Below, in pieces: positions 6,905-37,948 of a DNA stretch of 64,000 nucleotides. The stretch's first letter is position 1. Each line of letters opens with the position of its first letter. The stretch spans positions 1 to 64,000 of the IMG/VR virus record IMGVR_UViG_3300030616_000025. The stretch is one strand, 5' to 3'. The notes below the pieces were generated by a model, which searched no databases, had not been told where the DNA came from, and saw only the letters and a program-made list of their open reading frames with translations. This DNA is from a virus. A program made the translations under genes and the position numbers.

Positions 6905-7104
6905 AACAAACACCGGAAATAATATCACTACAGGAGTGCAGAAATCGCGTACAAGAAAATAAACCTATAGGAAAATTGAATATAGCCTGTCCGAGATGTC
7001 ACGGCGGGATGATGATTAAAGAAGAAGTGACACGAATAACCGGCGCAGACAGACCGGAGATACGGCTAAGGTGCGATAATTGCGGGATAAGGGAAACTGT
7101 TTGA
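6901..7104 (+). CDS. zinc-ribbon protein
   Basis: CPRCHG...CDNCG pattern. ATGA overlap with the upstream gene. Confidence 0.5.
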   Translation: MKQTPEIISLQECRNRVQENKPIGKLNIACPRCHGGMMIKEEVTRITGADRPEIRLRCDNCGIRETV

Positions 7105-10623: not shown

Positions 10624-11705
10624 TGCAAGTAAAATTTATAGACCTTGAAAAACTACACGAACCGATAATGCCGGAAATAGCACAGGCGATAGATAGCGTT
10701 GTCAGCGATAACGCTTTTATCGGCGGGAAATATGTAGAAGAATTTGAACAGGCATTCGGGAAATACCACGAAAGTAAATGTATAAGCTGTAACAGCGGGA
10801 CAGACGCGTTGATACTGGCATTGAAGGCGTTGGGAATAGACGAAGACAGCCGTGTTATTGTGCCAGATAATACATTTATAGCGACGGCAAACGCGGTAAG
10901 TGCATTAGGCGGTGTTCCTATATTCGCGGAAACAAACGACGAATATCTGATAACCGCGGAAGGAATAAAAGAAGCATATTATTCAGAGGTAGATGCAATC
11001 ATAGTAGTACACCTGTACGGAAATCCCTGTGACATGGATAGCATAATAGATGTTGCGAATGAATACAATCTGCCGATAATAGAGGACTGCGCGCAGGCTC
11101 ACGGTGCGACATACAAAGGAAAGAAAGTAGGAACATTCGGGGCGTGTGGATGTTTCAGTTTCTATCCGACAAAAAATCTTGGCGCAATGGGAGACGGCGG
11201 GGCTGTAATCACGGGAAACGCACAGCATGAAAGATTTATGAGAATCCTCAAAAATAACGGGCGCATGGATAAATATGAATATCTGGCAGAAGGAATCAAC
11301 AGCAGACTTGACGGTATACAAGCGGCTGTACTGACGGAGAAGTTAAAGCACCTTGACGAATTGAATTATCTGCGCAGGAAAAATGCGGGAATATACTACG
11401 ATGAACTAAAAGATATTGATGAGATAAAAATAATCACGCAGTACCGAGAAGAAAAAATGTGCGTGTATCATCAGTACGTCATAGAAGCAGGATCAAGAAA
11501 TGATTTGCAGTCATATTTGGCTTTATTCGGAATAGAGACAGGAATATACTATCCGTGTGCATTGACCGGAACAAAACCGTATTACAAGCAGGAATTAAAC
11601 GAAGCAGAAAATTTTAACATACTTAGCTTACCTATGCATCCGATGTTGACGGAAGAAGAAATAATATACGTCTGTGATAAGATAAAGGAATTTTACGATG
11701 TGTGA
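10623..11705 (+). CDS. DegT/DnrJ/EryC1/StrS-family PLP-dependent sugar aminotransferase
   Basis: FIGGKYVEEFEQAF, CNSGTDALILALKALGI, IIEDCAQAHGA, FSFYPTKNLGAMGDGG (lysine motif). The start is the ATG overlapping the upstream TAA, not the track's 10152. Confidence 0.9.
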   Translation: MQVKFIDLEKLHEPIMPEIAQAIDSVVSDNAFIGGKYVEEFEQAFGKYHESKCISCNSGTDALILALKALGIDEDSRVIVPDNTFIATANAVSALGGVPIFAETNDEYLITAEGIKEAYYSEVDAIIVVHLYGNPCDMDSIIDVANEYNLPIIEDCAQAHGATYKGKKVGTFGACGCFSFYPTKNLGAMGDGGAVITGNAQHERFMRILKNNGRMDKYEYLAEGINSRLDGIQAAVLTEKLKHLDELNYLRRKNAGIYYDELKDIDEIKIITQYREEKMCVYHQYVIEAGSRNDLQSYLALFGIETGIYYPCALTGTKPYYKQELNEAENFNILSLPMHPMLTEEEIIYVCDKIKEFYDV

Positions 11706-11961
11706 ATACTGCGACTGGTTTAAGCACCCGGAAACAAAACCGCTTATAATTCATGATGAAACAGCCGATTATCTTATAGTTGAATGTCCGATAGAAAGAA
11801 AACCGTTAGTTGTTTTCAAGCGGCACAAGGAAGATATAAAGTATATGGATATGATTGAAGCTATCGCAAGAGTGGGAACGCTGTTCGGGCCGACGTGCAA
11901 AATAAGAACGACCGACAATATTCATGCATGTTTTTATGTGGAGGATGCGCAGAATGTATGA
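11698..11961 (+). CDS. hypothetical protein
   Basis: ORF overlapping the upstream stop. No clear motif. Confidence 0.4.
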   Translation: MCEYCDWFKHPETKPLIIHDETADYLIVECPIERKPLVVFKRHKEDIKYMDMIEAIARVGTLFGPTCKIRTTDNIHACFYVEDAQNV

Positions 11962-12310
11962 GTATTTTATAGACTCTATACCGCCTTCATTAAATGCTTA
12001 TCTTGGAAAATCCGGGAAGTGGTATAAATATCAAGCAGATAAAAAGAAATGGGATTTATTGATGTTTGTTTCAATATCAGTCAATAGACCAGAAAAGCCA
12101 CTACCAAAAGCAAGAGTTATTTTAAGTTATCATTTCCCAGACAACAGAAGGCGTGATGCAGATAATTATTCTGGCAAACTCATATTAGACCCATTAGTTA
12201 AATATGGAGTCTTGCAGGATGATAGTTTTAAAAATGTGAAGTTGGAACTTATGGCAGAATTCAAAAGCGAAACTCCCGGATTAAACATCTTTATAGAGGA
12301 ATTGCTATAA
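11954..12310 (+). CDS. rusA: RusA-family Holliday junction resolvase
   Basis: PPSLNAY...RRRDADNYSGKLILDPLVKYGVLQDDS. GGAGG lies 9 nt upstream of this ATG. Confidence 0.8.
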   Translation: MYEYFIDSIPPSLNAYLGKSGKWYKYQADKKKWDLLMFVSISVNRPEKPLPKARVILSYHFPDNRRRDADNYSGKLILDPLVKYGVLQDDSFKNVKLELMAEFKSETPGLNIFIEELL

Positions 12311-13646: not shown

Positions 13647-14505
13647 TTATTCAAAAACATTACCGAATGATTTTAGGTTGTATTGGATGGCTGATTTGCA
13701 TATTGGTATGGCGGGTGTCAAGGAAAAACTCATTAAAGATTTATTTGCAAGAATAAAACGAGATGATAACGCCCGAATAGCATTAGGTGGTGATCTAATT
13801 GAAGCCGCCCCTGTGGGACATCCGTATTTTGATATAGATGTTCATGGTGGGGATTATGCGGTAACAAGCAAACAGGTAGATAGGGTTTGCGAATTGCTTG
13901 ATGGATTGCAGGACAAAATATTGTTTAATCTTGTCGGAAATCATGAACTTCGAATAAAAAACATTATGGATGTTGGTGCGGCAATAAATCAAAGACTTGG
14001 GATTGATGTTCCGTGCGGCAATGTCGATATTGTCTGCACATTGACAGAGAAAAAACACGATGATTATCCTGCAATAAAATTTTATGCTCATCATGGAGCG
14101 GGTAGCGTTAATTCGCAAGCGGGTGATTTAGACCAGATATACAGGAATGATGCAAGACGCGTAAAGAGAAAGCTTCGGTTCAAAAGAGCAGATTGTATTT
14201 TAATGGGTATGGCTCATATACACAAGATAAGAATATGCAAACCCGTTAAACAGATGATGATTATTGGCGACAAAGATAAAAGCGTTAAGCAGGAATACCC
14301 CGAAGCCATATTTACTTCTGATGGGGCTATAGAGGAAAATAGCCGTTGGTATTTTTCTACAGGTGCATTTTTTGGGTCACAAGTAGAGGGAATAGATACT
14401 TATGCCAGTAAATACATGTATGATCCGTTACAGCTTGGGTGCGTCAAAATATACGTAGAAGACGCAAAGGTAAAAAATGTCGAGCCGGTAATTATGGGAA
14501 ATTAA
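13633..14505 (+). CDS. calcineurin-like metallophosphoesterase
   Basis: DLHIG, GGDLIE, VGNHE, AHHGAG and MAHIH motifs in the canonical order. Confidence 0.8.
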   Translation: MLIADYSKTLPNDFRLYWMADLHIGMAGVKEKLIKDLFARIKRDDNARIALGGDLIEAAPVGHPYFDIDVHGGDYAVTSKQVDRVCELLDGLQDKILFNLVGNHELRIKNIMDVGAAINQRLGIDVPCGNVDIVCTLTEKKHDDYPAIKFYAHHGAGSVNSQAGDLDQIYRNDARRVKRKLRFKRADCILMGMAHIHKIRICKPVKQMMIIGDKDKSVKQEYPEAIFTSDGAIEENSRWYFSTGAFFGSQVEGIDTYASKYMYDPLQLGCVKIYVEDAKVKNVEPVIMGN

Positions 14506-14531
14506 CGGTAAACTTTTTTAAAGGAAAAAGG

Positions 14532-14927
14532 ATGGAAGTACAAGACATTAAGGTATACGTAGCCGGTGCATTACAGAACCCGTCCCAAATCAAGTATCTT
14601 GGCAATTCGCGGAAGATGATAAAGGGTGCGAAAGATATACTTGTAAAATATGGGCTTACTCCGTTTTGTCCGGCTGTTGACATGCTGTTCTTTCTTGGAC
14701 TTGAAAACGACGAGGAAATAACCAGAGATATGATAGTAAAATACAGCATGTATTGGCTTATGGTATGCGATATAGTATTTGTATTGCGCGGGTGGGAAGA
14801 TTCAGAAGGTACAAAGCACGAAATAGCGAAAGCCACAGAGCTTGGAATTCCAGTTGTGTATTACGACTATGCATGGTTAGAGAAAGAGGCAAGGAGCGTA
14901 ATTCTTGAAAGACAAAAAGCGGTATAA
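14532..14927 (+). CDS. DUF4406 / nucleoside 2-deoxyribosyltransferase-like protein
   Basis: KVYVAGAL at the N-terminus and VLRGWEDSEGTKHEIAKATELGIPVVY at the C-terminus. Confidence 0.5.
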   Translation: MEVQDIKVYVAGALQNPSQIKYLGNSRKMIKGAKDILVKYGLTPFCPAVDMLFFLGLENDEEITRDMIVKYSMYWLMVCDIVFVLRGWEDSEGTKHEIAKATELGIPVVYYDYAWLEKEARSVILERQKAV

Positions 14928-15642: not shown

Positions 15643-15867
15643 ATGCGCAAATGGAAATGGACGCCTGAAAAACAAATGAAACAATACAAACAAATAAGCG
15701 TCTGGGAATACTTAGCGGAATATATGATAGCACTTATTATCCTGGCAATACCCATGAAATACCTTTGGAATATAGCAATGCCGGGAATAGGTTTAGTCGA
15801 GATAACATACGTACAATCATTGTGTCTGCTTATCATGATACGGATAATGATAGGGCTGAATCTATGA
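15643..15867 (+). CDS. small membrane protein
   Basis: Two hydrophobic segments ([11 protein letters not shown] and [15 protein letters not shown]). Confidence 0.45.
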
Positions 15868-16322
15868 TACATGAAACAGCGATAGTCGAGTCGGGCGCAA
15901 TAATCGGGGAAGGGACAAAGGTATGGCATCACGCCCATATTATGAGCGGCGCACAGATAGGAAAGAATTGTGTGATAAGCAAAAACGTTTTTATAGCGGG
16001 GAATGTAATAATAGGTGACAACACAAAAATACAGAACAATGTCAGCGTGTATTCTGGTGTTACGATATGGGATAATGTCTTTATCGGGCCGAGTGTTGTT
16101 TTTACAAACGTCAAAAAACCGAGGGCGTGGAAAAAGCAGGAATACGAAAAGACACTTATTAAAAGCGGCGTTACGATCGGAGCGAACAGTACAATTATCT
16201 GCGGAATAGAAATAGGAGAAAAAGCCTTTATCGGGGCGGGTTCAGTTGTTACCAAAAACGTAGACGACTTGGCGATAGTGTTAGGTAATCCGGCGCGGAA
16301 AGTGGGGTATGTAGAAGAATGA
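15864..16322 (+). CDS. left-handed beta-helix (hexapeptide) sugar N-acetyltransferase, WbpD/WlbB/QdtC-like
   Basis: Runs of hexapeptide repeats ([42 protein letters not shown]) ending in [14 protein letters not shown] overlap. Confidence 0.85.
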
Positions 16323-17059
16323 GCCTTCCTGAACCGTACTACGAGAACGACCTTGTAACGATATACCACGCAGACTGCTTGGATATACTGCCGGAGATAG
16401 AAAAGGTTGATTTGGTTTTGACTGACCCGCCGTATGGGATAGGGATAGCAAAGAAGGGATCAATAGGAGGTGTTGGCAAAAATGGAAAACATGACAATGT
16501 GAATAACTACGGAAAATCGAATTGGGATAAACACCCACTTTCTTTAGAACAATTCAATAAGATTAAAAGCAAATCAAAAAATCAAATAATTTTTGGTTAT
16601 AATTATTTTGCAAATATACTTCCACCAACAAACGGATTGATAGTATGGGATAAAAAATGCCAAAACAATTGGTGGGATAATTTTTCTGATGGGGAAATAG
16701 CGTGGACGTCTTTTAAAAAGCCGTTAAGAATATTTCGGTATCTTTTTCTTGGGTGTAATGGCAACAATGAAATAACCAGAGGCAAAAAGAAACACCCGAC
16801 ACAAAAACCGCTTGTGCTGATAGGTTGGATGGTGGAGAATTGGACTGACAAAGCAGACATAATTCTCGACCCCTTCCTCGGCTCTGGCACAACGGCAGTG
16901 GCGTGTATGCAATTAGGCAGGAAGTGTATAGGCATAGAGATAGAAGAAAAATACTGTGAAATAGCGGCAAAGCGTTGCGAAGAAGCACGGACGGGATTAA
17001 CCCCTATAGAGCAGGAAATGTATGAAGGAAAAACTTTATTTGATGCGGAAGAAGAATGA
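16319..17059 (+). CDS. DNA methyltransferase (N6-adenine/N4-cytosine, DPPY type)
   Basis: [35 protein letters not shown]. Confidence 0.85.
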
Positions 17060-18702
17060 CAACAATCACCATCCTAACAACCTATTACGAACGGATAGAA
17101 TATTTACAGCGGACAATAGAAAGCATACATAGCGCATTAAAGAGGAAACCGCAGTATGATGTCAGACACTGTATATACGATGATTGCAGTAAGCAGAATA
17201 TAATATCTTCCGCTCAATTTGAAAAGTATATATTACCCAATTATCATATAGACATAAAACGCGGAACAGAAAACAATGGACTTTATCTCTATTGGCGAAC
17301 AGTAACAGAAGCAATGTCAATGTGCGGGGAATGCGATACGGTTATATTCTGGGCGGATGATTTCATAGCTTGCGAGAATTACTTTGATAAGCTGTTTTCG
17401 ATTTACAATAATGATATAATACTGAACGATAGTCTGGATTACAGATACAACGGATTTCAGACGCCCGGACTTGACGGTACGTTTGTACTTCCGTATACAT
17501 GGTATAAATTACTGGGAAATAAAATACTGCCTATCAGAGCGGAGATAATAGAACAAGCGCCGGAACATTTACGAGGCAGTCATGTATGGGAACAGACGAC
17601 AAAGCGCTTATTGACAATACCCGAAGCGCAGATATGGAGTCCGAACTATTCGCTTAGAAAACATATCGGCGAACAGCGGATATTGAATCCATTCAAAACG
17701 AGGGATATAAAAACAGTAAAATGGATAGACGAAGCTAAGAAGCCGAAATTACAACTTATTGACTTTTGGAGAGGCGATGATGCGCATAGGGAAGAAAAGA
17801 AGGTGTTGCTTGTAGTGCCGGGGGAAATAAGAAAAAACATTCAAACAGTATCGACATATATAAATCTATGCAGGAAATACAAACGGGTGGACGTATTGAT
17901 AGATACAAACGATACTGCAAATGCAGTGTTTTATATATACATTACGAAATGGCTTGGCATGAAAGCATTTTGTATTCAGGGAAAAACAGCGCTGATAGAC
18001 AATCTGTTTTCTAACTACGATATAGTGTTAAGCGATTTTTCATACAGCAAGGGAGATAAAACAGAACAGCAGAATATCGTCAAGCAATACACGAACACAT
18101 TAAATCAGATCGGGAATTACAGAAAAGTAAAACCGGCACACATACATAACAATACATTACCTATTGACTGGGGTAAAATCCGGGGAAAGAAATTTAAAAA
18201 GGAATACGACATACTCATTATAAATCAAGCGCCGGATAACTGGAACGGCACAAGAAGAAAGCACGGACATATACGGCAATTAGCGCTTGAACTGATAGAC
18301 AAGGGGCGCAAGGTAGTACAGCCGGACACAGGATACAACAGGCTAAGAGATATTCCGGTTGTCGAGGGTGACAATATGGACTTGATAGCACAGAGCAAAC
18401 TTGTAATAGGGAATAACTGTTGGCAGACAGAATTTGCTAACGTTATAGGTGTAAGGAACATAACCATATTCACGGCAGAGGATCCGGCAGTATGGAGAGA
18501 CAGGGGATTTCACAGGTTCAGTCTTAACATTATTCCCGGCAGACAAGCAGGATGCGCACCGTGTGAAACAAGGGGGAAGTTAAAGGAGAAATGTCCGAAG
18601 TGGATTTGCACACAGTATGATTTAAGCAAAATAGTAAACGTTGCAATAGAAATGTTGTCGGGGGAATTTATAAAAGTCAAAGGGGATTGTATATGGCAAT
18701 GA
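17056..18702 (+). CDS. two-domain glycosyltransferase (GT2-like N-terminus, GT9-like C-terminus)
   Basis: ITILTTYYERIEYLQRTIESI...IYDDCS at the N-terminus. VIGNNCWQTEFANVIG...ITIFTAEDP and CAPC...C...C at the C-terminus parallel the 4655 gene. Confidence 0.6.
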   Translation: MTTITILTTYYERIEYLQRTIESIHSALKRKPQYDVRHCIYDDCSKQNIISSAQFEKYILPNYHIDIKRGTENNGLYLYWRTVTEAMSMCGECDTVIFWADDFIACENYFDKLFSIYNNDIILNDSLDYRYNGFQTPGLDGTFVLPYTWYKLLGNKILPIRAEIIEQAPEHLRGSHVWEQTTKRLLTIPEAQIWSPNYSLRKHIGEQRILNPFKTRDIKTVKWIDEAKKPKLQLIDFWRGDDAHREEKKVLLVVPGEIRKNIQTVSTYINLCRKYKRVDVLIDTNDTANAVFYIYITKWLGMKAFCIQGKTALIDNLFSNYDIVLSDFSYSKGDKTEQQNIVKQYTNTLNQIGNYRKVKPAHIHNNTLPIDWGKIRGKKFKKEYDILIINQAPDNWNGTRRKHGHIRQLALELIDKGRKVVQPDTGYNRLRDIPVVEGDNMDLIAQSKLVIGNNCWQTEFANVIGVRNITIFTAEDPAVWRDRGFHRFSLNIIPGRQAGCAPCETRGKLKEKCPKWICTQYDLSKIVNVAIEMLSGEFIKVKGDCIWQ

Positions 18703-19226
18703 GAGAGATTAAGTTCAGGGCGTGGTCGCCAAAATGGGAATCAATGTTTTATTTTTCGCACATGGTGTGGCATTGGTTTGGAGATAGTTATTTGAGGTGT
18801 CAGAAAGATTATGAAACTAATCCGGTAGATGTGTCTTCTCAATGCGGTTTAGTTGATTGTAGCACCAAAATAGGGCGCATAGAAGAAGGACAGATAGAAT
18901 ATGAACTCATGCAATACACAGGACTCAAGGACAAGAACGGCAAGGAGGTATTTGAGGGGGATGTGGTTAGATGTTGGAAAGACCAAGACTGTTTTACAGA
19001 CGATAGCCCACTCAATCTTGTACCGGGTTATGCGGAAGCGATTATAGAGTATAATCCGTTTATTTGGGGGTTTAAACAATTAAATGGCAGTAACTGGTTT
19101 TTTTATGGGCCAGAAGGAAGGGAATTTTTCCCTGAATATTGGAGCGAAAAGACAAAACATGAAACATGGGAAGTAATCGGCAACATATATGAATCGGATA
19201 TGGAGAAGCTATGCCAAAAGGAGTAA
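18699..19226 (+). CDS. YopX-family protein
   Basis: MREIKFRAW, QYTGLKDKNGKEVFEGDVV, WEVIGNIYE. Confidence 0.75.
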   Translation: MREIKFRAWSPKWESMFYFSHMVWHWFGDSYLRCQKDYETNPVDVSSQCGLVDCSTKIGRIEEGQIEYELMQYTGLKDKNGKEVFEGDVVRCWKDQDCFTDDSPLNLVPGYAEAIIEYNPFIWGFKQLNGSNWFFYGPEGREFFPEYWSEKTKHETWEVIGNIYESDMEKLCQKE

Positions 19227-19765
19227 AGGGATTTCAGTTGAACCACACAACCGCTAAAGACACCAGAATAAAAATAGGCGATGCGCTTCGAAAAATATAT
19301 TGGTTCTATTGTGACTATTGTTGTCAGCGGATATTTACCCGCCCATCTCATTACAAGAGAAAGAAGCGGCACTATTGCTCTATGGAATGCTATTCAAAAG
19401 ACAGAAGGGAAAACTGGAAGCCAGAAGATCAACCAACATGGACTGGCGGTGTAAGCAACACAGAAACGCATAGACGATGGAAAAAGAAAAATCCAGAACG
19501 AATGGCGCATTTAAAAGCGAGAAGATATGCGAGAAAGAAGAATGCCGAAGGATTTCATACGTTTGAGGAGTGGCAAGAATTATTAAAGAAATACGGTTGG
19601 AAATGCGCTCATTGTGGCGCAGAAAATGATATAACAAAAGATCATATAATTCCGTTATCGGAAAACGGAACAGACTATATCGATAATATTCAACCGTTGT
19701 GCAGAAGTTGTAATAGCAAGAAGTGGAAACACATCTACGAAAACCCAGAACTATTGAAAGGATAA
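19211..19765 (+). CDS. HNH endonuclease
   Basis: CAHCG...DITKDHIIPLSENGTDYIDNIQPLCRSCNSKK. Confidence 0.85.
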   Translation: MPKGVKGFQLNHTTAKDTRIKIGDALRKIYWFYCDYCCQRIFTRPSHYKRKKRHYCSMECYSKDRRENWKPEDQPTWTGGVSNTETHRRWKKKNPERMAHLKARRYARKKNAEGFHTFEEWQELLKKYGWKCAHCGAENDITKDHIIPLSENGTDYIDNIQPLCRSCNSKKWKHIYENPELLKG

Positions 19766-19768
19766 ACC

Positions 19769-20020
19769 ATGCCGTATGTCAAGCAAATAAATAGAGATTC
19801 ATTGGATTACATTGTACAGGCAATGAGATTGGCAGAGATAAAAGCCGACGGCGATTTAAACTATATTCTATTCGCCTATTGCAAAAGACATATCAAGCCG
19901 GGATATAATAACTATAAGAATTTTTGCAGTGAATTAAGACAATGCGCAACAGAGATAGAAAGACGGCTATTAGCGCCATACGAAGACCAGAAAATTGTAG
20001 AAAATGGAGATGTGATATGA
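19769..20020 (+). CDS. hypothetical protein
   Basis: ORF in the packed array. Confidence 0.5.
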   Translation: MPYVKQINRDSLDYIVQAMRLAEIKADGDLNYILFAYCKRHIKPGYNNYKNFCSELRQCATEIERRLLAPYEDQKIVENGDVI

Positions 20021-20601
20021 GGTTCCCAGACTTCGAAGCGTGGAAAGAATACATACATCCCATAGACAGGAACAAGAACCTACAGCAGAGATATGAATAC
20101 TATCGAAATAAATACGACATGTTAAGTGAAATTGAATGTAGCAAGATGTGTGAAATCGGAGTCAGATACGGATACAGTGCGATAAGCTTTTTGACGGCAC
20201 ACCCGATCGCTGAATATATGGGTATTGATTGGATAAGTGGCGAGCATGGCGGGGTACAGGAAGATACATTCAGATACGTTTATCCTATGCTTGCGAAAGA
20301 ATTTCCAGAGGCTGTCATAAGTCTTGTACATGCGAATACGCAGGAAATGGTTTCACTACCGACAAATGAATTTGATTTTATTCACATAGACGGCGATCAT
20401 ACATATGAGGGTGCGGGGTGGGATATGAGAATAGCGTGGGAATCATTAAAGCATGGCGGCATGATGCTGATAGATGATTACAAGGCATTAAAAGAAATAC
20501 AACACGCAGTAAATGACTTTATCATAAGTCGTGGCGATCAGATAAAACAATATAATTTAGTAGACACATTCAGGGGAGATTTTAGGATATGGAAAACATG
20601 A
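20017..20601 (+). CDS. class I SAM-dependent methyltransferase (Methyltransf_24/CmcI-like)
   Basis: CEIGVRYGYSAISFL and FIHIDGDHTYEGAGWD...LKHGGMMLIDDY. ATGA overlap. Confidence 0.7.
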   Translation: MRFPDFEAWKEYIHPIDRNKNLQQRYEYYRNKYDMLSEIECSKMCEIGVRYGYSAISFLTAHPIAEYMGIDWISGEHGGVQEDTFRYVYPMLAKEFPEAVISLVHANTQEMVSLPTNEFDFIHIDGDHTYEGAGWDMRIAWESLKHGGMMLIDDYKALKEIQHAVNDFIISRGDQIKQYNLVDTFRGDFRIWKT

Positions 20602-21485
20602 ATAATATGCTTTATTACGATTGGAATAATCTCATAGTGTTAGATGCTTGCCGGTTTGATATATTCGAACAGGTCAATGATATTCCGGGGGAATTAAAAA
20701 TGATACGGTCTGTCGGGTGTCAAACAATAGAATGGGTAAGGGGAACATTCGGCAAGAGGAAGCATGATGACACAGTTTACTATTCATCAAATCCGTTTAT
20801 CAGCGAATCAGAACTTGGCAAGCTCTTGCCGGGACTGAAATTTCACAGGATATACAACGTATGGAAAAGCGGATATGACAAAGCAATTAAGAATGTGCCG
20901 CCCAGAAATGTCAACAAAATAGTATATGAAACGTATGAAATGCACAAAGAGAAAAGAAAAGTAATTCATTACAACAATCCGCATATACCGTTTTTGACGG
21001 GGGATGAAAAAGTACTCGGGAAAAACTATAGCGAAATGAAGAAGGATTTGGAAGCCGGATTGATAACAGCGTCGGACATAAGACTTGCGTATATCGAAAC
21101 GACCAGAGAAGTGTTAAGCGCGGTCAAGGAATTGCTTGCGGTATTGAAGGGCAAGACAATCATTACCGCGGATCACGGAGATATGCTTGGGGAGAAGGGA
21201 TTGTGGGGACATGGTACACGGCATAGAGGCATACTTGAACAAGTGCCGCTATTGGTAGTCAAGCCAGACGAAGAATTGATAATCGAACAGCTTGATAGTC
21301 TTGGATATATGGACAAACCGCAGACTTATATATACGCTTGGGGTAACAATGAAAAGCGCAAGTCAATGAAGGGTAGAGAGTGCGAGGTGTTAGCGCGGGG
21401 AAAGAAAAATACATGCACAGTGAAATTTCTTGACAACGGGCAAGTGGAATCTATCAGCAGAAACGCTTTAAGGAAGGTAAAATGA
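20598..21485 (+). CDS. alkaline-phosphatase/sulfatase-superfamily protein with a small C-terminal beta domain
   Basis: LIVLDACRFD metal site and ITADHGDMLGEKGLWGHG. No sulfatase nucleophile motif is recognisable. Confidence 0.55.
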   Translation: MNNMLYYDWNNLIVLDACRFDIFEQVNDIPGELKMIRSVGCQTIEWVRGTFGKRKHDDTVYYSSNPFISESELGKLLPGLKFHRIYNVWKSGYDKAIKNVPPRNVNKIVYETYEMHKEKRKVIHYNNPHIPFLTGDEKVLGKNYSEMKKDLEAGLITASDIRLAYIETTREVLSAVKELLAVLKGKTIITADHGDMLGEKGLWGHGTRHRGILEQVPLLVVKPDEELIIEQLDSLGYMDKPQTYIYAWGNNEKRKSMKGRECEVLARGKKNTCTVKFLDNGQVESISRNALRKVK

Positions 21486-22168
21486 TACTAACAAAATACG
21501 TAATTGGAAGTGGGTTCTTTTGCACAGAAGACGGGAACGTTAAGCATGGAGGTACAGCACGGTTTGGGACAGACACATTTGTACATACGCCAGAGTTTTT
21601 CAATCTATGGTTTGAATATATCAGCAAATTTACAACACCAGAATATGTATTTATAACTGACGCACGAAGTCCGGCTGTACCGGGAATACCGAAAAACAAT
21701 AACTTTGACATAATCTGGTATCGCAGGAAAGACAATCTTGGACACGCACGAGGTTGGAACGACGGGGTAATACAGGGTGCTGAATTCGCGCATCAGAAAA
21801 ACTGCGACTATGTCTATGTAGAGCAGGATTGTTTGGTATACGGGAAAGGGTGGGTAGAGAAATGCATGTACGGAATGGACAAGCCAGTACTGTTAGGCGA
21901 AGGCGGGCCGGGCAACTGGCCTATACAGCAGTGCTTAATCGTGGTTAAGAATTACTTTATACCTACGTTTGTAAAGCTGATAGGCGAAACGCTCAAAGAC
22001 GAGGCTGGAAAAGACATAGCACAGGAATACATGTATTCACGCAGGCTTGAAGGACATTATGAATTTATACCGTTTGTGGGCGGCAGACATAGACCGTTAG
22101 CCGATGATTACTGGTATGCACAGCACATCAAGCCGGAAGAATTAAAGAAAATGAAAGAGCTAATATGA
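21482..22168 (+). CDS. hypothetical protein (possible sugar-nucleotide transferase fold)
   Basis: Embedded in the glycan block. YVYVEQDC is a possible acidic motif. No firm family. Confidence 0.4.
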   Translation: MILTKYVIGSGFFCTEDGNVKHGGTARFGTDTFVHTPEFFNLWFEYISKFTTPEYVFITDARSPAVPGIPKNNNFDIIWYRRKDNLGHARGWNDGVIQGAEFAHQKNCDYVYVEQDCLVYGKGWVEKCMYGMDKPVLLGEGGPGNWPIQQCLIVVKNYFIPTFVKLIGETLKDEAGKDIAQEYMYSRRLEGHYEFIPFVGGRHRPLADDYWYAQHIKPEELKKMKELI

Positions 22169-22713
22169 AATACGATCTCGGAGGCAAGGGAAAAGGCGGT
22201 GAATGGACAACGGTAAATCTCGGCGCAAACGCAGACATACGCGCCAATCTACTTTACCTCGATGAATTTTGCGAAGACGGAGAAGTAGACGAGTTTAGAT
22301 TATTCAGTGTCTACGAACACCTGCCGACAGTATACATACCTAAATTTCACGCGGATATACACAGGAAATTAAAGCCAGACGGAATATTGCACGTGAAATT
22401 GACAGATGCAAAAAAGGCAATACAATTTTACAACGAAGGGAAGCTGTCATTTTACGGGCTGAATGACATACTGTTTGCATGTAAAGCGCGGAGATTAAAA
22501 GAGGCACGGGAAAAGTTAATTGACTTTAACATCCACAGGTGCATGTGGGGGGAAGAAGAAGCAATAAAGGAATTTGAACATTACGGATACAGGGTAAGAG
22601 TTGAGCAACGGAAATCATGGAAGTTTAACCTGCCGAGTTACTTGCCGTTTCATGACAACGAGAAATACTTTGACCTATCAATACCGGAATTTATATTGGA
22701 GTGCAAACATTGA
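22165..22713 (+). CDS. possible SAM methyltransferase-fold protein
   Basis: FSVYEHLP...IHRKLKPDGILHV resembles the C-terminal half of the Methyltransf_11 fold. The glycine-rich N-terminus is atypical. Confidence 0.4.
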   Translation: MKYDLGGKGKGGEWTTVNLGANADIRANLLYLDEFCEDGEVDEFRLFSVYEHLPTVYIPKFHADIHRKLKPDGILHVKLTDAKKAIQFYNEGKLSFYGLNDILFACKARRLKEAREKLIDFNIHRCMWGEEEAIKEFEHYGYRVRVEQRKSWKFNLPSYLPFHDNEKYFDLSIPEFILECKH

Positions 22714-23723
22714 AAACAATCTATCACTATCACATTTATAATTCAAACAGAGGTGACCAGGCTATACACCAATCAATACACGATATGATAGAGAGGGTGC
22801 ACGGAGAAAAAATAAACTGGATTCCCAAATGTCTCAATAATGATGTATGCACAAAAGAAGTCATAAAGGAAATGAACGAACAGGGCGACATGCTTATAAT
22901 AGGGGGGAGCGGATTATACGTTAATGCATGGAAAAACTATGAGGGTGCGTATTGGTATTTTCCGTGCGATCAGAAACTATTCAAGGAGATAAAAATACCT
23001 ATAGTACTGTGGAGCTTGGGAATGAACAAGGATTTTTCGGGGGAAGAAGAGCCGTTGACTGAGCAGACGTGGGATAGTATAGCGGAAATGAATGAACTGT
23101 GTGCAATGAGCAGTGTTAGAGACGAACGAACATTTGACAATCTATTGTGGCACGGAATAAAAACAAAACTCATAGCAGACCCGGCGCTATTTTTACAACC
23201 GGACACGAAGATTGAAAACGCCGAATTGCAGAGGTTAATTATAGACAATGATACGCTTGGGCTTAATCTGGCAAGTCACACAGAGTGTGCAAGAGCAATC
23301 CGGGATAAGAGCATAGATAAAATAATTGACATGTGTCATGCGTGGACAGGAAGCATAGTATACTTAAAACATCACGAAATGGAACACCGAAGTATAAAGC
23401 TATTGAAGAAAAAGGGTTTAAATCCATATGTTGTAGATTGCGAGCCGAAGCAGTTGTTGTATGTTATGCAACATCTGAGCCGGGCAATAAACATGATGCT
23501 TCATAACTGCATATTGTGTGTCAACGCAGAACTTCCGGTGTATAATATTCCATATAATGTAAAGCACGAGGGGTTTTTTAACTTGTTTTCGGATTCAATG
23601 AAATGCACAGGGTCGGACGCGTATATGATAAAGTGCTATGACGATCAGATATTGCGCCGGAAAAGAAAACTGAAACAGGACAATGACGATTGGTGCAGAA
23701 GGGTAGCTGAATTACTGAATTAA
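22701..23723 (+). CDS. polysaccharide pyruvyl transferase-like protein
   Basis: YHIYNSNRGDQAI...GDMLIIGGSGLY is the PS_pyruv_trans N-terminal signature. GTG or TTG start. Confidence 0.6.
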   Translation: MQTLKTIYHYHIYNSNRGDQAIHQSIHDMIERVHGEKINWIPKCLNNDVCTKEVIKEMNEQGDMLIIGGSGLYVNAWKNYEGAYWYFPCDQKLFKEIKIPIVLWSLGMNKDFSGEEEPLTEQTWDSIAEMNELCAMSSVRDERTFDNLLWHGIKTKLIADPALFLQPDTKIENAELQRLIIDNDTLGLNLASHTECARAIRDKSIDKIIDMCHAWTGSIVYLKHHEMEHRSIKLLKKKGLNPYVVDCEPKQLLYVMQHLSRAINMMLHNCILCVNAELPVYNIPYNVKHEGFFNLFSDSMKCTGSDAYMIKCYDDQILRRKRKLKQDNDDWCRRVAELLN

Positions 23724-23758
23724 ATATAATTATCTAATTGTTAGAAGGAGGTAAAATT

Positions 23759-24421
23759 ATGGAAAAACATGAGATAGAAAACGTTGTGTATCCGGGTTAT
23801 GATACTGGAAATATTGATGGATGGTTAAAGAAGTCTGAGGGAGAAACATTATATGCTATTTCAAAACTGACAGCAGGCCCGATACTTGAAATAGGTTCTT
23901 GGCACGGGTTGTCAACGTCATATATAGGGCGCGGGGTAAGAGACAGCCGTGATAATTATCCAGATAAAAGATTTGTTGCAACAGAGATGAATCCGACAAA
24001 AGATAATTTCCGGCAGATAGATGATAAGCATTGTGGCTTTTTCGATCCACCAGATGCAGACAAGCCTATAGTTGTTTCCGCACTTTGTGCATTAGACAAG
24101 ATACTTCCGACTATTGGAAAATGCATGGAAATTCTAAAAAAAAACATGAACGATATTGAAATGACTGATTATGTAGAAATACTTGAGGGTAGATTTGAAG
24201 ATGTTGCACCCAAATTGCAGTATTCATTTATTTTTTGCGACATTACTCACAGCAAGAAAGGAATAGACATGCGTATACCTGTTATAAAAACTATGCTTGC
24301 AGAGGAAGGGGTATTGGCGTGTCATGATGTACCGAGCCGAAATCTTGTTGATTATTTGCATAGATACATACATCCAAAAACCTATTTTTGTGTTGACAAT
24401 TTATATGTTGGATTGTTTTAA
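23759..24421 (+). CDS. class I SAM-dependent methyltransferase (Methyltransf_24-like)
   Basis: GAAGGAGG lies 7 nt before the ATG. PILEIGSWHGLSTSYIGRG and FIFCDITHS. Confidence 0.65.
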   Translation: MEKHEIENVVYPGYDTGNIDGWLKKSEGETLYAISKLTAGPILEIGSWHGLSTSYIGRGVRDSRDNYPDKRFVATEMNPTKDNFRQIDDKHCGFFDPPDADKPIVVSALCALDKILPTIGKCMEILKKNMNDIEMTDYVEILEGRFEDVAPKLQYSFIFCDITHSKKGIDMRIPVIKTMLAEEGVLACHDVPSRNLVDYLHRYIHPKTYFCVDNLYVGLF

Positions 24422-24529
24422 ATGGATTTATTGAATTTAATAAAAAAGCGTAGGATGAATGGATACGCAAAAGATGAATTAAAACACAAAAACGACATAT
24501 GGGTTGAGAAAGTAGCGAGTCTATTATGA
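24422..24529 (+). CDS. small hypothetical protein (35 aa)
   Basis: Fills the gap exactly. TAAATG start and ATGA overlap with the MurB-like gene. Confidence 0.3.
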   Translation: MDLLNLIKKRRMNGYAKDELKHKNDIWVEKVASLL

Positions 24530-25356
24530 AAAAATATTACAATTATTCAGTAAAGCATCTAACGACATTCAATATCGGCGGGGAAATGGAAGAGGTAGTA
24601 TTCCCGCAGACAGTCATTGAAGTAATGGAAGCATTAGAGACAGACAAGCGTATATATATACTCGGCGGTGGGAGTAATGTATTATTCGCCGACGGAAAGA
24701 TAGAAGGTAGGCTGATATGTCTTAAAAAGCTCTGTAGTCGCATCTGGGACGGCGTAGAGCTAACGGCAGACGCAGGATGTACAAACATGCTACTTTCAAA
24801 AGAAGCGGCGTTACAGGGGCTGTCAGGGCTTGAATGGGGCGTCTGTGTGCCTGGAACTATAGGTGGGGCGGCATACATGAACGCAAGCTATCAGCAGGGT
24901 ATAAGGCACTGTGCTACGCACGTATGGTACTACGATAGGCACGAGCAAGGAAACGCAGTTATAGAGTGGAAAGCTGCGGGGAAAGGACACAGAAAAACCA
25001 TATTTCAGGACATTGACTGCGTAATTCTTAGCGTGAAAATGCGATTAAAGAAGGACACCGTTCAAAATATCAGCAATAGAATGAGCAAACAGTTGGCGCG
25101 GAAAGAAAAAACACAGCCGATATATACCAATAGCGCAGGGTGTATATTCAAAAATCCGTCCTTCATGCTTAAAGTCAAATTGCCGACAAAGAAGATAGGC
25201 GGGGCGGAAATAAGCGAGGTAGACCCGCGATATATAATTAACGCAGGGGGAGCAACAGCAAAGGACGTACTGGAGCTGATACGGATAATCGAGGACGCGG
25301 AGGGAGAGAAAAAAGAACTTGAAATAAAACTTATAGGATTTGACGAAAAAAAATAA
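24526..25356 (+). CDS. murB: MurB-like UDP-N-acetylenolpyruvoylglucosamine reductase
   Basis: HLTTFNIGGE, ILGGGSNVLFAD, GLSGLEWGVCVPGTIGGAAYMNA, SAGCIFKNP. Confidence 0.8.
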   Translation: MKKYYNYSVKHLTTFNIGGEMEEVVFPQTVIEVMEALETDKRIYILGGGSNVLFADGKIEGRLICLKKLCSRIWDGVELTADAGCTNMLLSKEAALQGLSGLEWGVCVPGTIGGAAYMNASYQQGIRHCATHVWYYDRHEQGNAVIEWKAAGKGHRKTIFQDIDCVILSVKMRLKKDTVQNISNRMSKQLARKEKTQPIYTNSAGCIFKNPSFMLKVKLPTKKIGGAEISEVDPRYIINAGGATAKDVLELIRIIEDAEGEKKELEIKLIGFDEKK

Positions 25357-25363: not shown

Positions 25364-25391
25364 TTGACATATCATGAAAAAGACATATAAT
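25364..25391 (+). promoter_or_regulatory. sigma70-type promoter P2 (TTGACA-N16-TATAAT)
   Basis: -35 at 25364-25369 and -10 at 25386-25391. Confidence 0.6.
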
Positions 25392-25862: not shown

Positions 25863-26089
25863 AAAACATGTACGAGGTCGAAGTAAAAAGCGGAAATAAA
25901 TACTTCGTAATAGCAAACGACTTTAACGACGCGGAAAGAGTATTATCAAAATATATAGAGCGATGGGGATTGTTAAAGCATTATACGAGAGGCGCAAAAA
26001 GAATAACGCTCATATCACCGGTGGCGGAAATAAACGACGCGAAAGCAGATAAGACACAGGCAAGAGTCCTGTATGAAGAAAATCTATGA
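25859..26089 (+). CDS. hypothetical protein
   Basis: ATGA overlap. Confidence 0.5.
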   Translation: MKNMYEVEVKSGNKYFVIANDFNDAERVLSKYIERWGLLKHYTRGAKRITLISPVAEINDAKADKTQARVLYEENL

Positions 26090-26970
26090 AGACGGCTTAT
26101 ATCTATAATATCCCGGATTGGGCGGTGCATAACGTAGGCAAGCTATGGTTTGGACACAGAGACGATGTCGACTTGCTTAACTGGCACAACACGAGCGGGG
26201 AAGAATTAAAAAAATACGACCACATCATATTTGGACTATACACAATCTATGAGGACTTCAAATACAACAAACACAACTGCACTGTTGTTATACATGACCC
26301 TTGTGAGGTATTCGATCAAAACGTGGGATGGAAACAATCTCACAAGGTAACGTCTGCGGCAAACAAAATAAAGCATATTAGAAATTTAATCGTTATCAGC
26401 GAGGAAATGGAATACAGGATACACAAAGAGATAGGGCGAATGACATATCGCATACCGACAATGACACTGGACGAGCCGGGGGAAGTAAAAGATAGAGAGA
26501 CATGCAAGGTAATATCGATATTCAACAGATACCCGCGGAAAAGACCGGACTTTATAGTCAAACTACAAAAGCAACTGAAAAACGCGGGAATAGAAATGTA
26601 CATAAAGACAACGAAAGATAACATGCTAAGCAGGGAAGAATACATACAGAAATTAGACAGCCATGATATATACGTATGTGCGTCATTTCAGGAAGGTGGC
26701 CCTTTGCCCGCTTTAGACGCTATGAACAGAGGTTTAATGGTTATTTCGACGCCGGTAGGACAAATGCGGGAAATGATAAAAACAGGTCATAACGGTATAC
26801 TGTGCAATCACTTATCTATAAAGCAGTGGATAGAGCACTTAAACGAAAACCGGGGAGAGATAAAAAGAATGCAAAAAGCCTCCCTTGAAACAATACGTAA
26901 ACAGCGTAATATACAGGATATACGCAAAACAGTAGATGACTATTTAGAAAGGAAAAGCCATGAAGAGTAA
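26086..26970 (+). CDS. GT-B glycosyltransferase (GT1/GT4-like)
   Basis: YVCASFQEGGPLPALDAMNRGLMVISTPVGQMREMIKTGHNGIL. Confidence 0.75.
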   Translation: MKTAYIYNIPDWAVHNVGKLWFGHRDDVDLLNWHNTSGEELKKYDHIIFGLYTIYEDFKYNKHNCTVVIHDPCEVFDQNVGWKQSHKVTSAANKIKHIRNLIVISEEMEYRIHKEIGRMTYRIPTMTLDEPGEVKDRETCKVISIFNRYPRKRPDFIVKLQKQLKNAGIEMYIKTTKDNMLSREEYIQKLDSHDIYVCASFQEGGPLPALDAMNRGLMVISTPVGQMREMIKTGHNGILCNHLSIKQWIEHLNENRGEIKRMQKASLETIRKQRNIQDIRKTVDDYLERKSHEE

Positions 26971-29812: not shown

Positions 29813-31465
29813 ATGAGCCTACTTAACAAGATAGGTTTAGCATCACACAAGAAACTCAAACAGGCGCAGGAAGCGCTACAATCCCGTGACAACCAGATAG
29901 CTGAATTCAGCAATAAGCTTGAATCCCGAGAAAAGCAAGTCGAAGAGTTTACCGAAAGGTTTAAACTGCTTGAAGAAACGTCCGGCATATACAAGCGCAG
30001 GCTTGCGCATATTCAGAAGGAAGTCAGCGAAACAAAGAAGCTGACAGAAGCCGGGTATATGTTCTCCGGGGAAGACGGGGAAGAGAACTATATCGAAGTC
30101 GGCACATCCAAATATGACCTGAATCATCAGGACTATTCAGAACTGCAAAAGCAATGGGTAGAGATATTCAAAATCAATCCCTATGCTAAGCGCATACTGG
30201 AAATGCAGACGGATTTTATAATCGGGGATGGGATAACGTACAGAATAGACGACGAGCAGGAGAAAACACTTGGGCCGATAATGGACAAGTTCTGGAATGA
30301 CTACGACAATGACATAGGCCGCAATCTGGACACAATGGTAACAGAGCTTATGCTGTTTGGTGAACAGGTATATCCCATAATCAAAACGAAGGACAAGTCA
30401 ACAATTAAGATCGGGAACATAGACCCGAGGACAATAATTAAAATACGCAAAGACCCGAACAACACTAAGAGGCTATGGCAGGTCATAGTAGACGGCGGGC
30501 AAGAAAACAAAGACAGGGCTTACGGCGTATTGAATGAAACACCCGAAGGCAAAATGGGTATAGACAAAGACCAGAATAAACCGCACCCGGACGACAGTCA
30601 AAGCAAGGAGATAGAATACATAGGGGAAGTTGTCGTATTTCAGATAAACAAGCTGTTCAGTCAGGCACGGGGATACAGCGAACTAACCACTATGCTTGAC
30701 ACATTAGACCTTCTGGATCAGTTTGTATTCCAGGTTGCGGAGAGAAGTCTATTGCTGTTTCACTATCTCATGCACGTTACCTGTAAGGGAATGGGCGACG
30801 AGGAAATAAAGAAATACCGTCAGAAAGTCAGCAAGACATCGAGTGTGCTTGTGACAAACGAAATGGTTGAAATAGAGCTTATGTCCCCGGAGTTACAGAG
30901 CGTAGACGCACAGAACATCGTAACGACCATAGTCAGATACGCAATGGCAGGGGCAGGGATACCGGAGCATTTCATTGTTGCAGGAGATAACACGAATTAC
31001 GCAACAGCTAAAGAGCAGGGAACGCCGATAGAAAAGCGACTTGAAAGACGGCAGGACTTAATACGACAGATGCTTATACGCCTGACACGTATACAGTTGG
31101 AATATGCTTTCCCGAGTGCCGGGACAGACGAAATACAGGACTACATGGACGCTATTACGTTTCAGTTCCCGTCTATTAAGGGTGTGGACAAAAAGCAATC
31201 AGCAGACGTGCTAAGGAGTCTTGCAACTGCGCTACTGATAGCGGTGAATGCAAACATGATAACCAGAGAGAGCGCGGCAAAGGCATACATAGACGAAGCA
31301 GAGCGGCAGGGGATAGAGCTTGAAGAAGGGGATTACGAAGCATTCGATGACATTGAAAACAACATGTACAATGATCCGAAAGTAAAGGCGATATTAGGCA
31401 AAATGGGTAAGGACATGGATAACGACAAAAAGCAGATTCCCGGCAAGAAAAAAGGTGTTGCTTAA
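29813..31465 (+). CDS. portal protein
   Basis: 550 aa, immediately upstream of a MuF/SPP1-gp7-like gene and the capsid gene. Assigned by size, position and general composition. Confidence 0.65.
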   Translation: MSLLNKIGLASHKKLKQAQEALQSRDNQIAEFSNKLESREKQVEEFTERFKLLEETSGIYKRRLAHIQKEVSETKKLTEAGYMFSGEDGEENYIEVGTSKYDLNHQDYSELQKQWVEIFKINPYAKRILEMQTDFIIGDGITYRIDDEQEKTLGPIMDKFWNDYDNDIGRNLDTMVTELMLFGEQVYPIIKTKDKSTIKIGNIDPRTIIKIRKDPNNTKRLWQVIVDGGQENKDRAYGVLNETPEGKMGIDKDQNKPHPDDSQSKEIEYIGEVVVFQINKLFSQARGYSELTTMLDTLDLLDQFVFQVAERSLLLFHYLMHVTCKGMGDEEIKKYRQKVSKTSSVLVTNEMVEIELMSPELQSVDAQNIVTTIVRYAMAGAGIPEHFIVAGDNTNYATAKEQGTPIEKRLERRQDLIRQMLIRLTRIQLEYAFPSAGTDEIQDYMDAITFQFPSIKGVDKKQSADVLRSLATALLIAVNANMITRESAAKAYIDEAERQGIELEEGDYEAFDDIENNMYNDPKVKAILGKMGKDMDNDKKQIPGKKKGVA

Positions 31466-32555: not shown

Positions 32556-33338
32556 ATGAAAAACATTAGTAAGACGGATTTGGTAGCGTGTATGCAGAAG
32601 GGCATGAATCAGAAGGAAATGGCAGAGACACTTAATTGCAGTATACCGACACTGCACAAGTACCTTGACAAGCATGAATTGAGGGACGGCTTGCCGAAGG
32701 AACTTAAAACAAATGCATGGACACTGAATGAATCGAAGTATGCATTTTGCGTCAAACTGCGGGCTGATTATAACGTGCAGAACATCACATTAAAAGAACT
32801 GCTTGAACTGTCACAGGAAGACTTGGTAGGTATATACGAGGAATACCAGAAGAAGCAGTCAATGCCGCAACCGCCTACACAGCCTGTGCCTCTTGCGCAG
32901 ACAGTACAGCAGACCACACCGCCGCCTACTAAAAGTGTGTCTGATATTCCGCGGGAGATATTTTACCCAGACCCGGAAAAAGAAAAACAGCGGGGAATAG
33001 AGGAAGCCAGACAACAGGAGATTTGGCGCAAGGAATGGGCTGAATACAAAGACAAGAAAAGTATCAGAGTGGCAAAGAACAGGGCGAATCAGAAGCTGTT
33101 CTATGTAAAGCCGGTCAATCCCTACACAATGCGCAATCACGACATAGAGAAGATACGCAAGCATAGTGACGGCAGTATAACAATTAAAGCTCTATGCGGC
33201 CCGAAATGGCATTGGACAAAACAGGAACTGAACGGCAAGGGCAAAAAGGTAAAAGAGCTTAACGTAGCATACGGCAATGCAAACAAGGAAAAGGAATTCG
33301 ACGAAGGATTTTTAGGCTATAAGGAAATGGTTATATGA
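32556..33338 (+). CDS. HTH-domain protein with a basic C-terminal region
   Basis: GMNQKEMAETLNCSIPTLHKYL. GAAAGGAAAAGGT-ATG context. Confidence 0.5.
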   Translation: MKNISKTDLVACMQKGMNQKEMAETLNCSIPTLHKYLDKHELRDGLPKELKTNAWTLNESKYAFCVKLRADYNVQNITLKELLELSQEDLVGIYEEYQKKQSMPQPPTQPVPLAQTVQQTTPPPTKSVSDIPREIFYPDPEKEKQRGIEEARQQEIWRKEWAEYKDKKSIRVAKNRANQKLFYVKPVNPYTMRNHDIEKIRKHSDGSITIKALCGPKWHWTKQELNGKGKKVKELNVAYGNANKEKEFDEGFLGYKEMVI

Positions 33339-37769: not shown

Positions 37770-37948
37770 AAAAGCTATTGATAATAGTCCCTTTGATTGT
37801 GCTTTGCAACTGTAGGATAGGTTGGTATATCCACAAGACAGAAACGTCGGTCAATGCGGCTACAAACGAAGTGTGGGTACGTGAGACAGAGGAAATACGG
37901 ATAAAGATAAAGAAAGCCACCATACAGCAATTGAGGAATGAACGGTGA
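37766..37948 (+). CDS. small protein with an N-terminal signal/anchor-like segment
   Basis: MKKLLIIVPLIVLCNC. The Cys context is not a canonical lipobox. Confidence 0.35.
   Translation: MKKLLIIVPLIVLCNCRIGWYIHKTETSVNAATNEVWVRETEEIRIKIKKATIQQLRNER

Follow-up and report, generated by a model that had tools for sequence, protein, structure and literature searches.

Positions 1 to 64,000 of the IMG/VR virus record IMGVR_UViG_3300030616_000025 (hereafter the window, 64,000 nucleotides in full) raise the question of why a tailed phage should carry a homologue of the cell-wall enzyme MurB close to a gene of the polysaccharide pyruvyl transferase family. A sequence-only reading of the window had offered two answers, namely that the phage places a lactyl or ketal substituent on its own glycan, or that it boosts the supply of UDP-MurNAc in the host. 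We found that the pair recurs in ten independent glycan loci and that it is fused into a single gene in one of them. Judged from these comparisons, the pair probably, though far from certainly, adds a lactyl (1-carboxyethyl) ether to a glycan made by the phage, by enolpyruvyl transfer followed by flavin reduction.

The locus consists of three open reading frames (ORFs), each with a Pfam match to the kind of protein that the sequence-only reading had named for it (FAD, flavin adenine dinucleotide; SAM, S-adenosylmethionine):

22701-23723, + strand: PS_pyruv_trans-family protein (PF04230), 340 aa; the gene caller's start at 22710 gives 337 aa
23738-24421 (or 23759-24421), + strand: class I SAM methyltransferase of the Methyltransf_24 family (PF13578, 4e-14)
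24526-25356, + strand: MurB-like FAD-dependent reductase, 276 aa (PF01565 FAD_binding_4, 8e-11; PF02873 MurB_C, 2e-15)

The two enzymes of the pair

MurB was the best match of the 24526 protein in every library searched. The highest NCBIfam match was to MurB PRK13905 (E 8.7e-55), at 185.7 bits against a cut-off of 259; the score against TIGR00179 was 122.5 bits (cut-off 144.5), and the protein fell under the cut-off of all seven NCBIfam MurB models. Its AlphaFold 2 model had a mean predicted local distance difference test score (pLDDT) of 93.2, and Foldseek matched it to the type II MurB structures 4pyt, 1hsk and 3tx1 with template modelling (TM) scores of 0.89-0.90. The top PDB match, LucY (4pyt), was considered as a clue to function and set aside, being a housekeeping Bacillus-type MurB and uninformative here.

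Residues were mapped by alignment to E. coli K-12 MurB, taken from NC_000913.3. The catalytic residues Arg159, Ser229 and Glu325 of the E. coli enzyme are retained as R156, C206 and E266, so that the gene is not decayed at its active site, and Asn294 is kept as N239. The FAD motifs and the SAGCIFKNP stretch that had been picked out by eye are present as well. Ordinary MurBs commonly have cysteine at the Ser229 site (53 of 119 sequences in one set, 19 of 66 in another), and so does the Thermus enzyme (T. caldophilus, 2gqt). Other positions are altered: H155 stands in place of Tyr158 (65 of 66 ordinary MurBs have Tyr), P220 in place of the GLKG lysine Lys275 (64 of 66 have Lys or Arg) and D233 in place of Gln288, at a site that is His in all 66 ordinary type II MurBs. 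The loop after FKNP (211-225) has 13 aa, compared to at least 19 in ordinary MurBs. An alignment of 119 bacterial MurBs has 54 columns with conservation of 85% or more, and the window protein deviates at 16 of them.

So many changed columns could be expected of a bacterial gene that was captured, lost its function and is decaying. The ORF, however, is intact over 276 aa, has a confident model (pLDDT 93) and retains the FAD motifs along with the catalytic triad. Moreover, the substitutions are shared with an orthologue of 46% identity on another phage contig (L002, below), in which the FAD and catalytic motifs are preserved, and the pattern extends across domains of life, which argues for selection and not drift. 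We regard decay as extremely improbable.

Among some 5.8 billion proteins the MurB-like protein was a singleton, its best non-self matches having 36-38% identity and being scattered over unrelated phyla. A tblastn search against phages matched only faecal 'Bacteriophage sp.' contigs without annotation and fragmentary records, with identities of 27-35%, which we do not regard as phage homologues, and INPHARED contained no bona fide isolated phage with a homologue. To judge from its sequence and model, the 24526 protein has the fold and the triad of MurB yet is no ordinary MurB, and we propose that it is an enolpyruvyl-ether reductase.

These results bear directly on the idea that the gene is an auxiliary metabolic gene (AMG) encoding a true UDP-N-acetylenolpyruvoylglucosamine reductase, which raises the UDP-MurNAc pool of the host and lies near a pyruvyl transferase gene by accident. 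The best match in every library, the retained Arg, Cys, Glu and FAD motifs and the MurB fold at TM 0.9 all fit such a gene. On the other hand, the scores lie below all seven MurB cut-offs (185.7 versus 259 for the best) and no other protein exceeds 38% identity; an AMG taken from a host generally resembles some host gene far more closely. The protein has lost the invariant His, the near-invariant Tyr and the GLKG loop, isolated phages in INPHARED offer no genuine homologue, and the variant is tied to pyruvyl transferases in the ten loci described below, one of them in an archaeon without murein. As had been noted from the sequence, the window holds no MurA-like gene: none of its ORFs of at least 300 aa, all of which were scanned, belongs to the MurA or EPT family, and no other mur gene was found in the window. 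A boost of host UDP-MurNAc, the second answer of the sequence-only reading, is accordingly disfavoured, and we consider it quite improbable.

The 22701 protein matched PF04230 over profile positions 1-278 of 280 (E 1.5e-13; 51.8 bits, cut-off 25.3), which bears out its assignment to the pyruvyl transferases. Its score against the CsaB equivalog TIGR03609 was 47.8 bits (1e-12), far under the cut-off of 213.1. The AlphaFold 2 model (pLDDT 87.7) may have a GT-B-like fold, to judge from Foldseek matches such as UDP-GlcNAc 2-epimerases, WaaA and BshA at TM scores of about 0.5; no solved pyruvyltransferase was among the top 50, and sequence and profile searches of the PDB with the protein gave nothing. 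Relatives are few. HMMER recovered five sequences at 1e-30 or better from 1.84 billion representative proteins, the window's own included, which leaves four close relatives; a word-seeded search recovered only the protein itself, tblastn against 50,697 phage records found no homologue, and GTDB species genomes searched with a transferase pattern yielded one 1.9-kb contig only. We propose that the 22701 product is a phosphoenolpyruvate (PEP)-dependent enolpyruvyl or pyruvyl transferase.

At residues 264-268 of the window transferase, six of the ten aligned sequences carry an R-x-H motif in which the Arg stands two residues before the invariant His268. The Arg position is Met in the window protein and in the relatives P0122 and P0123, and Leu in P0131.

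The methyltransferase encoded between the two had no PDB or PHROG match and no similarity to the methyltransferase that lies 3' of the MurB-like gene in L002. It is probably a glycan O-methyltransferase. Because L002 lacks a counterpart in that position and the gene is absent from the other loci, gene order places it outside the conserved pair.

Recurrence of the pair in other genomes

The ten loci comprised seven metagenomic loci including the window (three on viral contigs) and one each from Natrinema, Cetobacterium and Paracoccus. These three cultured carriers were found by searching a plasmid collection with the MurB-like protein. Apart from the window, the loci are as follows:

L002, IMGVR_UViG_3300033148_004581, a 45-kb phage contig with TerL: transferase (47%), DNA methylase, Methyltransf_24 and MurB-like gene (46%)
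L005/L006/L007: transferase (on 14 contigs) and a 291-aa MurB-like gene, with stop/start overlap
L008, metagenomic contig: transferase and MurB-like gene, with stop/start overlap
L016, 1.9-kb contig: transferase and MurB-like gene, arranged as in L005-L008
L018, 59-kb IMG/VR contig: transferase and MurB-like gene, arranged as in L005-L008
L019, metagenomic contig: transferase and MurB-like gene, arranged as in L005-L008, the reductase cut by the contig end
L023, Natrinema pellirubrum pNATPE01, NC_019967.1, 6806-8813: pyruvyl transferase gene overlapping a gene for a MurB-like 'FAD-binding protein'
Cetobacterium somerae: the pair, between GT4 genes and an O-antigen polymerase gene
L025, Paracoccus aestuarii pAES7, NC_019366.1, 2492-5029: a single 845-aa fusion of PS_pyruv_trans, FAD_binding_4 and MurB_C

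The pair are the only two genes common to all ten. The surroundings speak of glycan synthesis. The 59-kb contig L018 also carries six glycosyltransferase (GT) genes, a 4,6-dehydratase gene, a DegT gene and a head-tail-adaptor-like gene. The Paracoccus fusion, annotated as 'polysaccharide pyruvyl transferase family protein', adjoins a glycosyltransferase gene and glf on a 13-kb plasmid. In Natrinema the pair sits in an agl-type glycosylation cluster and is followed by a flippase gene, aglF and aglM, with a gene of the 3'-phosphoadenosine 5'-phosphosulfate (PAPS) reductase family nearby; haloarchaea, Natrinema pellirubrum among them, have no murein. The Natrinema transferase showed no detectable BLAST similarity to that of the window, so the association spans more than one lineage of transferase. 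When the closest relatives of the window transferase were inspected, a MurB-like gene lay downstream in five of six. The exception, P0123, is the second-closest relative (42% identity) and lies on the 2-kb contig L003, where (84-1557) it is followed by a gene of the flavin mononucleotide (FMN)-binding Nitroreductase family. Another flavin reductase may have taken the place of the MurB-like enzyme there.

Several candidates were discarded along the way. The MurB of a Stenotrophomonas plasmid was an ordinary copy outside any glycan context, and a scan of metagenomes with the MurB-like alignment gave mostly ordinary MurBs. Long PF04230 proteins, considered as possible fusions with other flavin reductases, carried GT2, Wzx-type flippase or methyltransferase domains instead. 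A distant blastn search with the Cetobacterium pair for the lactyl genes of serogroups O124 and O146 found no match in 5,426 E. coli genomes.

The reductases that accompany a transferase share a signature, which we examined in 16 partnered MurB-like sequences (of which contig ends cut two short) and 66 ordinary MurBs. The invariant MurB His was missing from all 15 partnered sequences that cover the site (the L019 protein is truncated there) and present in all 66 ordinary ones. The residue equivalent to Tyr158 was missing in 15 of 16, with Cetobacterium as the exception, and the loop measured 11-18 aa in the 15 sequences covering it, as opposed to at least 19 in ordinary MurBs. Arg159, on the other hand, was kept in 16 of 16, Glu325 in 14 of 14 (the two truncated sequences aside) and Asn294 in every sequence that covers it. 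A profile built from four members scored relatives at 427-309 bits and ordinary MurBs at no more than 239 bits, and neighbour-joining placed the 13 metagenomic members in one bipartition. Going by MurB crystal structures, Arg159, Ser229 and Glu325 presumably act on the enolpyruvyl group. The pattern suggests that the partnered enzymes keep the machinery of reduction within a remodelled substrate pocket.

Proposed chemistry and its precedents

In the scheme that we favour, the 22701 transferase would attach the enolpyruvyl group of PEP to a sugar hydroxyl, and the MurB-like enzyme would reduce the resulting enol ether to an O-(1-carboxyethyl) (lactyl) ether by means of bound FAD and NAD(P)H, using Arg156, Cys206 and Glu266. 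The acceptor would be something other than UDP-GlcNAc, because the substrate pocket is remodelled, and the product would be an acidic sugar resembling muramic acid within a glycan specified by the phage. Of the two answers given from the letters alone, the lactyl-or-ketal proposal is thus the better supported, through the recurrence of the pair, its presence in a murein-free archaeon and the shared signature; this support is comparative in kind.

Several points weigh against this scheme. The roles of Tyr158, Lys275 and Gln288 as contacts to UDP-GlcNAc are a presumption, taken from crystallography of MurB from E. coli and S. aureus. The two genes are not contiguous in the window, where the methyltransferase gene intervenes, or in L002, where two genes do. 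A MurB-like neighbour is absent, in the available sequence, for the transferase relatives of L003, L020/L021 and L022. Support for a single clade of partnered reductases reached a bootstrap of only 52 of 100, and their long branches could attract each other. The Ser229 site is variable: the window and L002 have Cys, the three cultured organisms Ser, the L005 family (L005:2625-3500) Thr, and L008 (3123-3953), L016 (from about 1213) and L018 (9036-9854) Gly. Such variation is not what a conserved canonical mechanism would lead one to expect; the window enzyme itself has Cys, and in the variants, which are otherwise well conserved, another residue or water may replace the canonical proton donor. 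The chief weakness is that all characterised PS_pyruv_trans enzymes yield pyruvate ketals and not enol ethers (PMC6801904), and a ketal is no substrate for a MurB-type enzyme.

The same observations can be taken to mean that the transferase makes an ordinary pyruvate ketal and that the MurB-like protein carries out some other redox step, for example on an unsaturated or keto sugar, the two being neighbours in a pathway but not consecutive enzymes. The ketal products of the family, the Gly and Thr at the Ser229 site in several partnered reductases, which hint at altered chemistry, and the remodelled pocket would all agree with this. The Paracoccus fusion and the stop/start overlaps in L005, L008 and Natrinema, however, indicate tight coupling, only these two genes are shared by all ten loci, and Arg159 (16 of 16) and Glu325 (14 of 14), by which the enolpyruvyl carboxylate is held and polarised in MurB, are kept. 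We judge mere proximity in a pathway to be unlikely, and continue with enolpyruvyl transfer and reduction as the preferred scheme.

That scheme would be a variant of the known logic of MurA and MurB, with enolpyruvyl transfer from PEP followed by flavin reduction to a D-lactyl ether, and the window reductase is homologous to type II MurB (TM 0.9) with Arg159, Ser229 (as Cys) and Glu325 kept. Unlike MurA, which shares its fold with EPSP synthase, the window transferase is a PS_pyruv_trans protein with a predicted GT-B fold; unlike MurB, the reductase lacks equivalents of Tyr158, Lys275 and Gln288/His and has a shortened loop. The genes lie in a phage glycan cluster and not in dcw, and the pair occurs in an archaeon that makes no murein.

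CsaB, Pvg1p, WcfO, GumL, ExoV, Mimivirus L143 and Megavirus mg538 resemble the 22701 protein in belonging to PF04230 and, as far as its model indicates, in a GT-B-like fold, and such ketal-forming enzymes are likewise encoded in glycan clusters with glycosyltransferases and methyltransferases. In contrast to the proposed product, their cyclic ketal needs no reduction, and we know of no FAD reductase reported as their partner. The window protein is also set apart from the CsaB equivalog by its score (47.8 bits versus a cut-off of 213) and by having four close relatives in 1.84 billion proteins.

Besides MurNAc, lactyl-ether sugars occur in many O-antigens, in capsules, in cyanobacterial and mycobacterial exopolysaccharides and in Campylobacter N-glycans. 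They are known from E. coli O58, O69, O124, O146 and O150, and the wfeP gene of O124 has been assigned to the synthesis of UDP-GlcLA (PMC7685785). In Campylobacter, pgl operons that include a gene for a pyruvyl transferase correlate with a sugar of 234 Da, which was proposed to be glucolactilic acid (bioRxiv 10.64898/2026.05.23.727390), and Shigella boydii 17 is credited, by way of a citation in PMC5643014, with 'two new genes' for glucolactilic acid. Compared by class of product, these systems resemble the proposed one in an O-(1-carboxyethyl) hexose of a surface glycan and in dedicated cluster genes. They are cellular, however, and use Wzx/Wzy or pgl lipid-linked assembly, whereas the window belongs to a phage without membrane machinery.

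Among viruses, pyruvyltransferase-family members encoded by giant viruses were already known (PMC9614988). The glycosylation of mycobacteriophage capsids and Mimivirus fibrils is similar to that proposed here in relying on soluble glycosyltransferases, aminotransferases, acetyltransferases and methyltransferases encoded by the virus, which make glycans independently of the host (PMC9614988), and predicted capsid glycosylation is mentioned in PMC11256854. These systems differ in that no MurB-like reductase has been reported in them, and in that attachment to the virion is, for the window, speculative. Literature searches on MurB-like proteins, on MurB together with pyruvyl transferases and on viral murB AMGs found no description of the pair. 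Against the searchable literature, what is new is the recognition of a separate MurB-like subfamily, linked to PF04230 in genomes of three kinds and including a fusion, its presence in tailed phages, and its setting in a large phage glycan toolkit that does not depend on membranes.

The phage and its glycan genes

The window matched the metagenomic contig ERZ27252234 k141_3008316 (69,038 bp) and represents most of a siphovirus-like phage genome of about 69 kb, with every gene on the + strand and a G+C content of about 41%. The hallmark genes and other landmarks of the phage are these:

5666-5740: tRNA-Met
6596-6904, + strand: Cpn10/GroES co-chaperonin (PF00166, 3e-25)
7080-8906, + strand: large terminase
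29813-31465, + strand: portal
33335-35971, + strand: protease/major-capsid fusion, 878-aa ORF (PHROG 'major head and protease protein', 'head maturation protease')
44644-46899, + strand: tape measure
48720-53827, + strand: tail proteins
56244-57641, + strand: DnaB-like helicase

The terminase has at most 23% identity to that of any cultured phage, and a nucleotide search with the 11-kb cluster against the 50,697 phage records gave no match.

Roughly 20 kb from the large terminase to the portal is filled with soluble glycan-building enzymes. At least ten further glycan genes accompany the pair in this interval. Together with a glycosyltransferase gene upstream of the terminase and the genes interspersed among them, they are:

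996-3503, + strand: two-domain GT4+GT2 glycosyltransferase (Glyco_trans_1_4 at residues 184-325, Glycos_transf_2 at 489-573)
8903-9493, + strand: sulfotransferase-like protein, weak match
9490-10623, + strand: sulfatase/alkaline-phosphatase-superfamily enzyme (PF00884, 1.2e-28)
10152-11705, + strand: DegT/DnrJ/EryC1 sugar aminotransferase (PF01041, 3e-98, residues 174-511 of the maximal ORF)
11924-12310, + strand: RusA, interspersed
14439-14927, + strand: DUF4406/nucleoside 2-deoxyribosyltransferase-like protein, upstream of the acyltransferase
15765-16322, + strand: hexapeptide-repeat acyltransferase (PF00132, 1.2e-25)
16319-17059, + strand: DNA methylase, interspersed
17056-18702, + strand: large GT2-like protein, weak N-terminal Glycos_transf_2 match
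18687-19226, + strand: YopX, interspersed
19211-19765, + strand: HNH, interspersed
19942-20601, + strand: second Methyltransf_24 methyltransferase (PF13578, 2e-15)
21482-22168, + strand: conserved protein without assigned function
26086-26970, + strand: GT4-type glycosyltransferase (Glycos_transf_1 and Glyco_trans_1_4, 6e-12)

A further, weaker sulfatase-like protein is also encoded between terminase and portal. The acyltransferase is probably a sugar N-acetyltransferase. The aminotransferase domain begins at about 10670, so the true start codon probably lies near 10620-10670.

The phage contig L002 has orthologues of most of these glycan genes in a different order. The two-domain product of 996-3503 corresponds to two separate L002 genes; the sulfatase-superfamily protein is 37% identical to L002:5060-6160, the GT2-like protein 26% over 595 aa to L002:6172-7884, and the GT4-type enzyme 39% to L002:8956-9846. 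The conserved protein of 21482-22168, which had no match in Pfam or PHROG, is 41% identical to L002:7878-8612. The second methyltransferase is 44% identical to L002:11701-12285, which lies directly upstream of the L002 MurB-like gene.

A hydropathy scan found no ORF of the window with more than two predicted membrane-spanning segments, and with Pfam it revealed no flippase, polymerase or phosphoglycosyl transferase in the window, which argues for cytoplasmic assembly on a soluble acceptor. From the position of the genes and from the viral precedents we speculate that the glycan is attached to a virion protein glycosylated in the cytoplasm. Phage-encoded glycan-modifying genes often act on the O-antigen of the host, and nothing in the window identifies the acceptor; the same chemistry might therefore be aimed at an envelope polymer or small molecule of the host, as in superinfection exclusion or receptor masking, and not at the virion. 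We find this doubtful, since the window encodes no polytopic membrane protein and none of the three kinds of protein just named, since the genes stand between terminase and portal beside the structural module, and since a gene set of this size would suffice for making a glycan from the beginning, not just for adding one group.

Directly 3' of the capsid genes (37945-41953) lie six consecutive ORFs of 206-235 aa each. Three of the six have a ConA-like lectin/Laminin_G_3 domain, and a Toxin_R_bind_N-like domain was found in one of these three and in a fourth ORF. They may be paralogous carbohydrate-binding or decoration proteins, which could tie them to the glycan theme. The head protein upstream (33335-35971) is unusually long, joining protease-like and major-capsid-like regions. 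The genes from 22.7 to 25.4 kb follow one another closely on a single strand, and this interval has no terminator-like site. A sigma-70 consensus (TTGACA-16 nt-TATAAT, 12 of 12 positions) stands at 25364-25391, 8 nt past the stop codon of the MurB-like gene and ahead of small ORFs that begin at 25415; a new transcription unit may begin there.

In annotation the partnered reductases go by 'UDP-N-acetylmuramate dehydrogenase' or 'FAD-binding protein', and a census of peptidoglycan AMGs could include them by mistake. A MurB fold that lacks the invariant His and adjoins PF04230 provides a sequence signature for locating glycans of this kind and, if the proposed chemistry is true, the gene pair or fusion could serve as a marker from which lactyl-ether glycans would be predicted in any genome. 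The biosynthesis of lactyl-ether sugars is barely described in the literature searched, and the pair offers a concrete hypothesis for it; the Natrinema cluster would predict a lactyl-modified archaeal glycan, which has not been described previously. More tentatively, and as something we think possible although the odds are against it, a PS_pyruv_trans protein partnered by a MurB-like enzyme without the His may represent a second enolpyruvyl-transfer fold besides that of MurA, forming a module for lactyl-ether sugars in bacteria, archaea and phages with which this phage decorates its own virion with a peptidoglycan-like acidic sugar, without membrane machinery. For the phage itself, the locus would be a case of a MurB homologue that serves a tailed phage for a purpose other than cell-wall synthesis, and its large membrane-independent glycan toolkit points to elaborate glycosylation of the virion or of an infection stage in an uncultured phage lineage.

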